Part shown: positions 50,918 to 58,203 of the stretch, one piece after another
How the letters are laid out: each line of letters opens with the position of its first letter
Position numbering within the stretch: the stretch's first letter is position 1
Assembly (NCBI GenBank): GCA_000165425.1
Contig: CT868035.1
Span: 186,001 to 245,749 of the forward strand
DNA: 59,749 bases
Direction of reading: 5' to 3'
From: Paramecium tetraurelia
Lineage: Eukaryota
The notes under the pieces: model-generated
What the model was told of the DNA's origin: nothing
Database searches by the model: none
The model's input: the letters and a program-made list of their open reading frames with translations, nothing else
Position numbers and translations under genes: made by a program

Positions 50918-52998
50918 TCAATTTAATAATTCGAAAAATGCATCCTGATTATCTAAAATACACTATTTAATCTCTGACATTCCTTTTATAGTATTATAAT
51001 TCAAATAACCATGAGATAAGTTTTCATATATAGTTATTTTTACATCTCTCTGCACAACTCTAGGTCATAAATTAAATATATACTGTAGTCTTTAAGCCAA
51101 TCGAAAAACTTAATCATACAAAGGATCTTAATCACCACAAAACAATCTTGTTGGGGGGAACTATTTTAAAATATCATATGATAATAATAAAGGACTCATA
51201 AATGGATCAATCCCCAATTAAGAATCTGGATGTGCTGAATAAGATTCAATACAAATTCCTAAAATAGTATGACTAAGTATTTTATCATTGATTGACTTCA
51301 AGTAACTAGGAGTGTACTAGAATCTTATATCAACAGCAGGATAATTCAATATCAACCCATTTGGGATTTGTAATTTATATTTAATAGTTAAGCCAACCAA
51401 AGCCGTTGCCAAATTACCACCAGCACTATCGCCTGTAACAATGATTTTATTGGGAACTATTCCAAATGTTTTTTCAGAATAATTTAATATCCAATTATAG
51501 GCTTGCCAACAATCATCCAAAGGTATTGGATAAGGGTATTTAGGAGCTAAACTATAATCGATCGAAAAGATGGGAACATTTAAATTGATTGCCCACTCTC
51601 TGGTATAGCATTAATGACTTGATGAGGATTGGGAGATAAAACCTCCTCCATGAATATGTATGATAATCTTATCTTCAATAGTGTTGTTTTATTTTATGAA
51701 AAATGATTTCAAGAAACTAAATATATTATCCTATTCCACTACATGTTGGTTGTACAATAGCCTGATTCGAATTCTGCCTTTATTTTTGATAAATAAGAAT
51801 TTGTCATCTCTGTGTATTTCCTAATTCACATATTCAATTGGCTGATTGGAAATTTGATCATAGATTCCTTATCTAATTTAACTATTTGCTTCTTAAATTG
51901 TGAGTGGCAGAACGACTGGCAAAATATAGAACTTTATGTTTGTAGAAATTTTGGGCAATCCCAAATTAATTAAATGCTTGACTCCTGGTAATTCAATAAA
52001 ATTCATAGCCTAATATGCAGTGTCAGCTTTTAATTAACTCATATGATCTTTCATTCCTTTTTCTGCTGCTGATCTTGATAAGAAATAGTACATTGAATTT
52101 AAACTTACTGAAAATATTTTACCCCATTTGCTGGTAGTCTTCTTGCAATCATTTACTAGGGCATGACCAACCATAACAGATTATACAAATTTATCAAATG
52201 ATTATCTGATTTATTCTGGATCACCTAAAGACTTTTATACTATTTATATAAATTATACTTTTCTGGTAGTGATGCATTCTAATTTCTTCCAAACTGGATG
52301 AGTGCTACTTAAAGACATAATGTCATTTTTGTCTGTATCTATTGCAGAAGGCATAATTAAATTAAGCATTAGAATTTCTGTCCCAAAAACCTTGATTTCA
52401 TCAGTTAAGCTTTGAGAAGCAAAAGTATGTTATTCATACAATTTCAATTGTTATTGCATCTTAGGCAAGAACTCTGTCTATAAGTAATGATAGGGAACCT
52501 GCAACATTCTTATATTGACATCATCTGCCTTTAGTGCTTTAATTGATCTCTCCTATACATAATCTAGGTGAAAGGAAACAATACTTTATTTTAATTCTAA
52601 GAGTATCTTGCTTTCTTGTTCTTTACAGTTTGACAAGAGTTCATCTACAATCTATAATCCTTTCAAGAGAATAAAAAAATGTCTGTTCGCATTGTTGAAG
52701 ATCCTATTTTTTGTTTCAGATTCACACTTTACAGTTTTGAGTATCTTAATGATGTGGTTCAATTAATCGAGTACTAACGAATAGGTTTAGTATTAATACT
52801 ATCTCGAGTAGCTTAAAGGCATTATTCTTGAGATTAACATTGATCTGAGTTTCTGATTTGAATTTAAATCTCAGTAGGAACTTATGCCTGAGAAGACTTG
52901 TAGCAAACATTGTTAAAAAGTGTGTAATCATCTATTTCACTTGTTCTGTCATAATCGGATGAGATAAAATCATTAAGATGAGTTTTAGGAAATTGCAT
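50918..52998 (-). CDS. Hormone-sensitive lipase family (GDXG alpha/beta hydrolase)
   Basis: IIHIHGGGFISQSSSSH, SIDYSLAPKYPYP, GDSAGGNLA, CGDQDPLYD, HGYLN; long N-terminal extension. Confidence 0.92.
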
Positions 52999-54470: not shown

Positions 54471-57400
54471 TCATCTCACAGAAAATTCTCTAGAATCATC
54501 AGTTTTTCTCCCATGTATATATGTCGAATAATATGCACATTTATTGCTAAAATTATAAATTGATTTACAAGAAAAAGCTTTTATCTAAGTCAATACAAAG
54601 ACCATCTTTTAAATTATTATCATCATAATTGCAAGAACCACTAAATTAAAATATAGACTTACATCAGTTAAGTTTCATCATAAACTTGCAATTTCAATAC
54701 CCACTCACCCTTTCTCTTACCTACTGAATATTCTCCTTCAGATAAAGTGAAGCTAGATAACAGGCAATTCCAACTTAAATCGCTCCATTTTTTATCTTTA
54801 TTTCCAAAATTATCATATGTACCACTAGCGCTTAACTATTTGATTAAAATAATACATAATATCTCCTTGTTCAAATTACATATCCTTCGAAGTTTGCCAC
54901 AACCCTTGCTTAACTCCTGATTTGTACTGTCCAAACTAATATAATTAAAAGAATCTGCCATTTTTAATTTCTATTTTACTCCCAAAAGTTTTAATGAGGT
55001 TCCAGCCATCCTCCATTTTTATTCCCGCAAGTATCATATAATCCCTCTCCGCTATGAAATCAGCAAACTTAATACATAACTGAGAATTCATTTGTTTTAT
55101 GAGCTCTAAATAAAATTTCGGATTTTCCAACCCTACACCCAAAATGATAATTTAATTTCTATATTATTTAGCGAGATCTGACATAATTCTTATAGTTACC
55201 TACAAAATTTTTGATCAATGTCTATCCACTATCCATTTTTAATCCCTTTCTCATAACAACCACCTCCACTATGGTTATTATTGAACTTTACATTTTAATG
55301 AATTCTTGATCAGTGAATTCGCGAAAATTAATGGCCCAATCACCCTATTTTATTCCATTTTAGTATTGCCCTTTTTTTGTAACTTGACAAAAACTTATGT
55401 TATAATGAAGAATACTCTCTAAATTTCTCGTGTAACTCATTCCAATTACCATCTTTTCTTCCTTATGAATTATAATAACCTTCCCCTCTAATGGCAATAA
55501 TAAATATTAATAACATTTAAATAAACTAAGAACCATGAATTTTCCGATATTCAAAAACAGATCTTCCAACTTTTTTCCCGTTTTAAAATTACACTATTTC
55601 TCTAACTTAACAGGAACTTTTAAATAAAATCTAATGTTACTCTGAAAAACTTTCATATAATTCTTTCCATATTCCAGATTTTTAACCATTTTACTCATAA
55701 TCTCCACCTCCTCTAATTTATATAAACAGCCAATTTTACATGATTTCAAAGCCCTTACTTTCACTGTATCTATATTTGGCAATCCATTTTCCGGTTTTTT
55801 TCATATTTTTATAACTACCTTCAAGGATAATTTGAGAATCTCTCAAATTTAATGTAATTATACTCTGCGAAATTTTCAGATAGCTCCTTCCAATCTTCAA
55901 TTTTATCTCCATTATTATCATAGTTTCCTCCTCCACTAATATTCTACTGAACTATACATTTCTTCAATTTTATCCTCTTTATTTAGTCGAAGAATTAATT
56001 TTTTTTTAAATATAATTTTCCAAACTCCAATTTTCTTTCCCTTTTCGTAATTTCCGCTCTAAAAAATATCACAATTCCTTTGATAAATACAAATCAAAAC
56101 TATTGATAATTTTTGCATGGTTCATTCCATTAACCAATTTTTCGCCCTTTTTGATCGTATTAGCCTGATCCTCTAACCTTTGTTCTCGTTTATGAAATGT
56201 GACAAAATTTAGGGAAATCTTTTGAACTTTAAATTACCCATTCATCTATCCTTATTCCATCTTTATATGCCCCTTTATATATCAATTAATTCTATCTAAA
56301 GGTAACTTAATAATTGTTACTCACAGAAATCCTCAATTAAATCTTACCACATCCCCTATTTAATTCCCATGTTATCATAATTACCGCTCCCACTACATTA
56401 ATTCAAAAAAATACATAATTTTATTATTTTTTGTTAAAATTTCCACCCATTTAACAATCCATAATCCTGTTTTTATACCGTTTTAATATTCCCCAATTTC
56501 CAATATCAAAACACCTCTGTTATGGCAGAAAAATAATTTACCCTTATAAAATATCCTTTAGTTGTGTCCATTTGCCATTTTTCAATCCGTTGGTATCGTA
56601 TGATCCTCCTCCTCTAAATGGATTGTTTATTATAAAATACAGCACAGAGTTTTATGAGATTATTTTCCACTCCCCTGTTCTTTTTCCCATATCATAATAA
56701 CCAGAAAACAATATTTATTATTTCCTTTGTTATTCATAATATTTACAAAAAAATGAGTTCTAGCTTCTGATTTATCCATTTATTTTCTGAAAATTAATAG
56801 TCATCATATATATTGTTATTGCTAATTAAATTATATTTTTTGTTACATCTGCTTAAAATATCCATTAGATTCCAAAAAGTAAATATCCAAATCCTAAACT
56901 TATTTACAGTTTTTATATATTATATTCCACTGGAATTCAGAAAAACTGTTTTTATAATCAATAACAATTGTTTGTACCTTAGCTAATCATATTGCTCAAC
57001 CCAAGCGCCTTCCTACCTTCCTTATTAATCATATGATCCACCACCACTAAATTAGATTATATCTAAAATCCCTACATTTTTTTCCACATTTAACTGGACG
57101 ATTTTCTAATCTTTATATCAAATTAGTGGCATTTAATTCCGTTATTATATTCTCCCTCAAAAATAACCTAGTTTGATCTATCAATGTTTAGAGAATTTAT
57201 AAAACCTGCAAAATGTCTTTAATGTTTATATCCATTTTCCATGTTTTTATCCATCATTGTTATAAAGTCCACCTCCACTAAGTCATTTATGGGAATCTAT
57301 ACATTGTTTAAAAGTCTGAGCCAGAGTCATCTCTAAATTTGACAAAGAACTCCCCTTATTTTTTTCCTAGGTAATATTACCCAAAACAAACAACTTAACT

Positions 57401-57960
57401 TCCACTTTAATCAAATATAAATAATTTTTACTCATGGTTTTTTCTAAGTTGTTTAAAATATGGAAATTGATGAGGAAGCATGCTATAATACTAAACTTAT
57501 TTACTTTGGAAAATAAAAGTCATTTAAACTTAAATTGTAGTATAAAACTAAATAGTTATTAAATTCTTCACTATTTAATATAACGCTTAGGAGAATTTCA
57601 ATATATATAATACCATTTAAACACTCTCTCTTTAAATTTCGTAAAAGCAATATTTTCAAGTTCTCCTTAGCTTACTTGTGAGTCTTTTGTTTCAAATAAT
57701 TATTTTCTTAAATGTTTTATCAAATTAATTGAAATTTATGTGATTTATCCTTGCACTATCATTTTAGCTTCTCCATTTTGTTTGAATTTGAGAAAAATTG
57801 TTTAGACTAAACATTTATTATTACAGTATTTGTCAACTTAAATCCTCCAAATTCCAATCGGTTTGCTGCCATTAATTTGTCCTGCCTTAATAATTTTTAT
57901 TTTTTCTACATAGCACAATTGATCTCCATATTGAATGTAAGAGTTTTTATTCTAATTCAT
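54471..57960 (-). CDS. Tandem ~58-aa repeat protein (GGG.YD..G.K.G.W / G.Y..G.K.G.W; MORN/YwqK-like), ~25 introns
   Basis: About 13 units spliced in one frame through phase-2 introns, ending at TGA 54471-54473. Candidate ATG 57960; exons 5' of 57431 are less certain. Confidence 0.8.
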
Positions 57961-58203
57961 TTCTATTTATAAATTTTATGAATAGATTGAATAATTTAAT
58001 ATAGTCTATTCATTTTATATACTTTCTTAGTTTTAGATTGAAACATATGAATACGACTGCCAAATACAATTTTATATAAGCTTATTAATGATCTCTGATT
58101 TCTTTTAGTTTTATTACATTCCTTCATAAAAACTCAAATTGAGATTCATTTGATTAATTAATATAAAAATTATACTAAGCTTTATTTAGATAATTCTATT
58201 ATT

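Follow-up and report, generated by a model that had tools for sequence, protein, structure and literature searches.

Gene model and exon structure

A 59,749 nucleotide (nt) stretch of the Paramecium tetraurelia genome (contig CT868035.1, positions 186,001 to 245,749 of the forward strand; referred to here as the window, in whose own numbering all positions are given) carries a repeat gene encoded by many short exons. The window is macronuclear DNA, AT-rich and ciliate in character. Three-frame reading combined with a coordinate-based script resolved a single minus-strand gene (54471..58149) with 27 exons and 26 introns, extending from an ATG at 58149 to a TGA at 54473-54471 and collinear with its orthologs in P. 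pentaurelia (P0002) and P. sonneborni (P0003). The coding sequence (CDS) of 3039 nt is translated into 1012 amino acids (aa) using the ciliate genetic code (table 6). The introns are 22-32 nt long, at a density of 8.6 per kb of CDS; all 26 have GT..AG borders and 23 of them begin with GTA. Each of the 26 introns is in phase 2, and they fall at two recurring positions. An earlier reading of the sequence (the original prediction) had described a gene in which each repeat unit is encoded by two exons and all introns are in phase 2, and the gene model bears this out at 26/26 introns.

The predicted boundaries required more revision. The gene had been placed at 54471..57431, but its start lies at 58149, 718 bases further upstream, adding exons of 536 and 81 nt; tblastn using the P. 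sonneborni ortholog (963 aa) places the N-terminal region from 58143 downward. A first gene model, with a start ATG at 57481 and a 31 nt intron 22, was dropped after comparison with the orthologs. The repeat exons are of two types, A and B, most often 72 nt (n=8) and 102 nt (n=6) in length, respectively, and their order is alternating with exceptions. All eight 72 nt exons listed in the original prediction were located exactly, as were six of the seven listed 102 nt exons. The seventh (57303-57404) is the 3′ part of a 180 nt exon; its end at 57303 was retained, but there is no intron at 57405 and the frame continues to 57482. The description of the 72/102 pattern as strictly alternating was overstated, given the length variants of 69 nt (two exons), 75, 84, 99 (two exons) and 120 nt, and two fused exons of 195 and 168 nt.

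In 5′ to 3′ order on the minus strand, and from the gene model unless otherwise indicated, exon 1 (57614..58149, 536 nt) carries the start codon and the N-terminal region identified by tblastn of the P. sonneborni protein, with which exon 2 (57505..57585, 81 nt) shares 12 of 27 residues without a gap. Exon 3 (57303..57482, 180 nt; three-frame reading and gene model) ends in the first B-type hairpin and is followed by exon 4 (A, 57206..57277, 72 nt), exon 5 (B, 57076..57177, 102 nt) and exon 6 (A, 56978..57046, 69 nt). Exon 7 (56847..56945, 99 nt) is a degenerate B type in which 25 of 33 residues are identical to P. sonneborni, exon 8 (56747..56821, 75 nt; gene model and ortholog alignment) is a degenerate A type, and exon 9 (56641..56724, 84 nt) is a short B type, the resulting 52 aa unit being common in paralogs too. 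Exons 10 (A, 56542..56613, 72 nt), 11 (B, 56415..56516, 102 nt) and 12 (A, 56321..56392, 72 nt) precede the fused exon 13 (56101..56295, 195 nt), which gene model and junction analysis resolve into a B part (99 nt), a candidate fossil intron (56173..56196, 24 nt) at the B/A junction, and an A part (72 nt). Exon 14 (55958..56077, 120 nt) is a long B type. The regular part of the array then consists of exons 15 (A, 55864..55935, 72 nt), 16 (B, 55740..55841, 102 nt), 17 (A, 55641..55712, 72 nt), 18 (B, 55515..55616, 102 nt), 19 (A, 55416..55487, 72 nt), 20 (B, 55292..55393, 102 nt), 21 (A, 55200..55268, 69 nt), 22 (B, 55076..55177, 102 nt), 23 (A, 54980..55051, 72 nt) and 24 (B, 54856..54954, 99 nt). 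Exon 25 (54663..54830, 168 nt) joins an A part (72 nt) to a B part (96 nt) with no A/B intron; the orthologs are gap-free here, and the acceptor was set by their 'IIAGG' motif. Exon 26 (A, 54569..54640, 72 nt) and exon 27 (54471..54546, 76 nt), which contains the TGA stop at 54473-54471, complete the gene.

Adjacent to the repeat gene, the minus strand contains an open frame at 51065-52840 (591 aa) with HGGG and GDSAGG motifs; it may encode a hormone-sensitive-lipase-like alpha/beta-hydrolase.

Splice junctions and nature of the repeat

Comparative, rather than transcript-based, evidence argues that the predicted splice junctions are real. The length of 21 of the 26 introns is not a multiple of three, so that their retention would shift the frame, and the repeat motif is regained at every junction once the introns are removed. 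Alignment of the spliced protein with the P. pentaurelia ortholog was gap-free in 19/19 comparable exons, and alignment with the P. sonneborni ortholog was gap-free in 22/27 exons, with gaps in exons 1, 3, 8, 13 and 24. A 64 aa exon translation was 100% identical to a public P. tetraurelia macronuclear protein (P0001, 174 aa) and 63% identical to the P. pentaurelia protein (P0002, 614 aa). Intron phases are roughly even in ciliates of the group to which Paramecium belongs (PMC13685798). Given even phases and independence, finding phase 2 at 26/26 introns by chance has p ~4e-13, a value that presumes independent introns, whereas those of this gene share descent and are not independent.

RNA data lend support to none of the junctions. 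Mapping covered 4 of 24 listed sequencing runs, in which two raw RNA-seq runs gave no reads at the locus and the contigs of the other two gave pieces of 19-82 nt only; one of these was inconsistent with the spliced distances. Comparison of exon 1 with longer database proteins found no protein covering the N-terminal exon. None of the runs listed as matching the sequence is recorded as RNA. The fraction of sampled words present was 0.38-0.51 in 13 runs guessed to be RNA and 0.99-1.00 in six others, and ~0.54 of words would be expected if only within-exon words survive; this comparison builds on a guess and does not count as evidence.

The spliced protein consists of an N-terminal region of ~200 aa, which may hold degenerate hairpins too, followed by ~12 tandem units of about 52-64 aa. 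The unit consensus, derived from 185 units, is 'IGGG.YDe.G.K.GkWiEl...F....Qviy.GeY.nGkK.G.W.i..R......f..', a 58 aa sequence made up of unlike halves of 24 and 34 aa. Each unit has two motifs, 'IGGGxYDxxGxKxGxW' in A and 'GxYxNGxKxGxW' in B, both predicted to be of the beta-hairpin type.

Comparison by hhalign of a profile of 64 family members with six bacterial MORN_2 proteins, all of which pass the Pfam MORN_2 model, scored 94.6% (E 6.5e-8, over 377 columns), and comparison with a single MORN_2 protein from a Shewanella plasmid scored 81.6% (E 1.1e-5), whereas two unrelated negative controls scored 0.1%. Since the comparison with MORN_2 proteins was positive and the controls were at 0.1%, the repeat is probably a remote relative of MORN_2 (YwqK-type) rather than a member of that family, and the label 'MORN/YwqK-like' in the original prediction holds at the profile level. 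A motif of the type Y-x-N-G-x-K-x-G-x-W, read from the hhalign alignment, is presumably common to the family and MORN_2. The Shewanella protein (60.5 bits on Pfam MORN_2) was also the one match (E 0.7) in a tblastn search of 72,556 plasmid records using the P. pentaurelia ortholog. The sole PDB match of the paralog P0037, MORN4 (E 0.55), is equally weak and points in the same direction; a tblastn search of phages using P0037 found no match.

The relationship has to be weighed against a number of negative or qualifying results. The hhalign E-values are pairwise and can be inflated by repeats. None of the 64 members reached the cut-off of Pfam MORN (PF02493, 22.5 bits), and five gave sub-threshold matches (best E 0.042); P0037 scored 18.3 bits on this model, and the orthologs P0002 and P0003 had no Pfam match. 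At E up to 10 the 64 members matched 76 families; MORN_2 itself (PF07661, 'MORN repeat variant', cut-off 29.6 bits) was not one of the 25 that were listed, a scope that leaves room for a rarer weak match. Pfam searches with single exons and with exon 1 gave nothing meaningful. The family profile had no match in PDB at E up to 1. Fold and function are assigned by analogy: MORN repeats serve as beta-hairpin modules through which proteins bind each other or dimerise (PMC7725318), and the protein could likewise be an elongated scaffold of beta-hairpins that mediates contacts between proteins or assembles with itself. In an existing structure model of residues 1-200 of the P. sonneborni ortholog, MORN and MORN_2 proteins were among the nearest structures, with template modelling (TM) scores of 0.29-0.47, under the bar.

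Age of the array and the wider Paramecium family

The units within the gene have diverged strongly, as originally predicted, sharing 25-38% amino acid identity. Mean identity was 0.38 between A-type exons (55 pairs) and 0.25 between B-type exons (45 pairs), while positional orthologs share 0.67 (A exons, 19 comparisons) and 0.68 (B exons, 18 comparisons). At the DNA level the 72 nt exons are 56% identical, with 43% identity at third codon positions versus 31% expected from composition (third-position identity 0.39-0.43), and Tandem Repeats Finder detected no array at the cassette period, only two short AT-rich rows with periods of 8 and 11. The array is collinear, exon for exon, in P. tetraurelia, P. 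pentaurelia and P. sonneborni; fixed, collinear repeat numbers in paralogs and orthologs had been named beforehand as the result that would refute diversification, and for the orthologs this is the outcome. A tree of units from these three species recovered 11/11 positional units as monophyletic (support was only 0.12 for one of them), so that units group by position. Because the orthologs are collinear, the units group by position and identity within the gene is low, the array appears to have been complete before the three species split, with no turnover since.

Small changes to the array can nevertheless be recognised. The 24 nt at 56196-56173 in exon 13 lie at a canonical B/A junction, end in TTAG, begin with TT instead of GT, and form eight stop-free codons; the P. 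pentaurelia protein has the corresponding eight residues, and the P. sonneborni protein lacks them. This stretch is probably a former intron whose donor was lost and which has become coding. At the A/B junction of exon 25, which is intronless, the three species align gap-free, consistent with one clean intron loss. Introns with a length divisible by three (3n) account for 5/26, and four of these contain no in-frame stop (minus strand, 24 or 27 nt: 56614-56640, 55713-55739, 55617-55640 and 55488-55514); their retention would add 8-9 residues with the frame intact. The fifth (55052-55075) contains a stop.

With the P. pentaurelia ortholog as query, 236 of the 7999 candidates scored were matched at E up to 1e-3, and the 120 matches listed were all from P. 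tetraurelia, P. pentaurelia, P. sonneborni, P. octaurelia or P. primaurelia. The profile of 64 members matched 1677 cluster representatives at E up to 1e-3, with 383 still matched at 1e-30, and look-up of the species for 10 among the 150 listed matches gave Paramecium in 10/10. The repeat family therefore appears to be large and, among identified members, so far limited to Paramecium. A search of metagenomes for related loci with this profile gave no sufficiently conserved stretch. One member from P. sonneborni (P0209) has a protein kinase domain (Pfam Pkinase, E 2.4e-35) at its N terminus, ahead of the repeats. Among 227 family proteins, the spacing between units was most often 58 residues (185 times), followed by 60 (131), 59 (95), 52 (76), 57 (71), 54 (66) and others. 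Since unit length varies across the family, the 72 and 102 nt sizes are probably a trait of this gene and not a fixed size for the whole family.

Among 53 close pairs of family proteins, sharing 55% identity or more across 300 aa or more, 42 had no indel of 15 aa or more; 13 such indels were found overall, three of them of 23-25 aa, approximately one A exon. Against a uniformly static family, the paralogs P0022, P0035 and P0140 have internal blocks that are 88-93% identical and 112-237 residues apart, while the orthologous pair P0022/P0035 is only 70% identical, below the identity of their internal blocks. This suggests gene conversion or a younger internal block duplication in these proteins, and the family is thus not static everywhere.

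The protein sequences of paralogs were also informative about one of the two intron positions. In the 227 family proteins, 869 'GGG' anchors following a hydrophobic residue are a median of 27 residues from the preceding B motif, and 49 '[S/R]GGG' anchors, in 42/227 proteins, are a median of 34 residues from it, the S or R before GGG going with 7-10 extra residues. Many of the listed [S/R]GGG anchors read 'M[Q/Y]...[S/R]GGG', the sequence expected if a phase-2 intron of the form AT|GTA...AG|N and 24-33 nt in length is read through. This suggests that a phase-2 intron before 'GGG' is common to paralogs that are only ~30-35% identical, and that many annotated family proteins from several Paramecium species hold unspliced in-frame introns. 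The evidence comes from protein sequences, and the bare read-through signature was also seen 68 times beside normal anchors, making the association an enrichment and not a proof. A family-wide pattern, with hundreds of genes derived from one two-exon MORN_2-like cassette and thousands of tiny phase-2 introns at two fixed positions, is a tentative extension that we regard as possible but doubtful. If it were true, stop-free 3n introns would be tolerated between hairpins, adding 8-11 residues per loop when read through or, like the fossil intron of exon 13, fixed; retention or exonisation of tiny introns would be a recurrent source of length variation in repeat proteins; and the family would offer a natural way to examine whether selection otherwise acts against such introns.

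Origin of the exon pattern and comparison with known systems

The exon pattern is most probably the old, frozen product of tandem duplication of a cassette, inherited vertically. An ancestral cassette consisting of an A exon, an intron, a B exon and a second intron, both introns being in phase 2, would have been copied in tandem, most likely through unequal crossing-over, with each copy inheriting the two intron positions and their phase; duplication of an intron-bearing cassette would explain why positions and phase are the same in every unit. The amplification would predate the split of P. tetraurelia, P. pentaurelia and P. sonneborni, and probably the spread of the family as well, given that paralogs seem to share the intron before 'GGG'. 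Vertical inheritance would have followed, during which the sequences diverged while selection on the fold kept the lengths, hence the 72 and 102 nt sizes. Later events would have been small, namely one intron loss (exon 25), one donor loss (exon 13), and the short indels that produced exons of 69, 75, 84, 99 and 120 nt.

Three other explanations were considered. The first, in line with the original prediction, is a modular system that remains active, with ongoing duplication, loss, exchange or skipping of phase-2 exons diversifying a recognition or binding family. The uniform phase 2 would keep any exon-level change in frame, the family is large, with 1677 representatives at E up to 1e-3, the internal blocks of some paralogs are more similar (88-93%) than the P0022/P0035 ortholog pair (70%), and the 53 close pairs show 13 indels that reach or exceed 15 aa, three of them of 23-25 aa. 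The indels in annotated proteins may, however, be gene-model errors, as skipping a phase-2 exon costs a predictor nothing, and 42/53 close pairs have no large indel. For the gene itself, the array is collinear in three species, 11/11 units group by position, and the units are old, with low identity and no array at the DNA level, so that a diversifying recognition or binding family is not supported. The phase symmetry can hardly serve exon skipping, which has not been seen in P. tetraurelia and which the spliceosome acting on tiny introns is argued to preclude (PMC5663052). This explanation is consequently unlikely.

That the array grew intronless and then gained introns independently and repeatedly, at the same context in each unit, is very unlikely. 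The recurring context (12/26 exons end in 'AT' before the intron, and A exons begin N-GGA/GGT) could serve as a preferred site for insertion or intronisation, but ~24 parallel gains in one gene would be required in a genome whose genes contain 2.3 introns on average (PMC5663052), the same position appears to be used in paralogs that are only ~30-35% identical, and an inherited cassette accounts for position and phase at once. Finally, the introns could be an artefact of the gene model, with the locus read otherwise, for example as shorter proteins. The public P. tetraurelia proteins of the locus, of 174 aa (P0001) and 440 aa (P0010), do read through several predicted introns. These proteins are, however, fragments that retain only introns of 3n length and end where the frames shift, and the 21/26 introns that are not multiples of three, the repeat motif restored by splicing at all junctions and the gap-free match to independently annotated orthologs make an artefact extremely unlikely. 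The fragmentary state of the public proteins matters for annotation and for those who use such proteins in work on structure or evolution. The same applies to the approximately one in five family proteins examined that seem to carry unspliced in-frame introns, which has consequences for annotation as well as for structural and evolutionary studies.

In repeat genes generally, exons commonly coincide with repeat units, and repeats seldom turn over quickly (PMC3995336, citing Street 2006 and Bjorklund 2010). As in those genes, exon borders in the Paramecium gene track repeat borders; most repeats of this kind are conserved and not rapidly changing (PMC3995336). What differs is the setting, with 26 tiny introns of 22-32 nt in a genome averaging 2.3 per gene, a number that makes the gene unusual for Paramecium. 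No description of the exon pattern in Paramecium was found in the literature as judged from titles and the starts of abstracts, or by term search in PMC13685798.

With respect to the repeat itself, the glycine/aromatic motif resembles the 14 aa consensus YEGEWxNGKxHGYG of canonical MORN proteins such as TbMORN1, junctophilins, MORN4 and radial spoke proteins, but the period is 24 + 34 aa compared with 23 aa, and GxW replaces GxG in both hairpins (PMC7725318). The unit consensus accordingly lacks the canonical MORN traits of a 23-residue period, GxG, G10 and YEGEW. It also differs from MORN_2, a uniform 22 aa repeat, in being a 58 aa pair of unlike hairpins (24 + 34 aa), and from bacterial MORN_2 proteins in being eukaryotic, intron-rich and so far found in Paramecium only. 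A family of 1677 representatives that passes no Pfam threshold merits a model of its own.

The closest known counterpart in gene structure is found in the leucine-rich repeat (LRR) genes of Tetrahymena, which contain arrays of exactly 90 bp exons with phase-2 introns that have been explained by clonal amplification (PMC6564038). The original prediction drew this analogy, and in form it holds: both are ciliate repeat genes with fixed-length exons, phase-2 introns and a junction codon split between neighbouring exons, and amplification of an exon-intron unit offers an explanation for both. The Paramecium gene likewise has tandem arrays of equal-length exons with phase-2 introns. Unlike in Tetrahymena, the Paramecium cassette consists of two exons (72 + 102 nt) and not one, the repeat is MORN_2-like and not an LRR, and exon lengths vary among paralogs with no single exact length. 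Association with LINE-like elements (long interspersed nuclear elements) and with pericentromeric or subtelomeric germline regions is a further trait of the Tetrahymena-type class. The Tetrahymena arrays are young, species-specific expansions that retain nucleotide similarity, whereas the Paramecium gene is old and collinear between orthologs, its DNA similarity is gone, and no array remains at the cassette period. As an old and frozen counterpart of the Tetrahymena 90 bp LRR arrays, the Paramecium gene lends itself to comparison with them, each representing a different stage of the same process.

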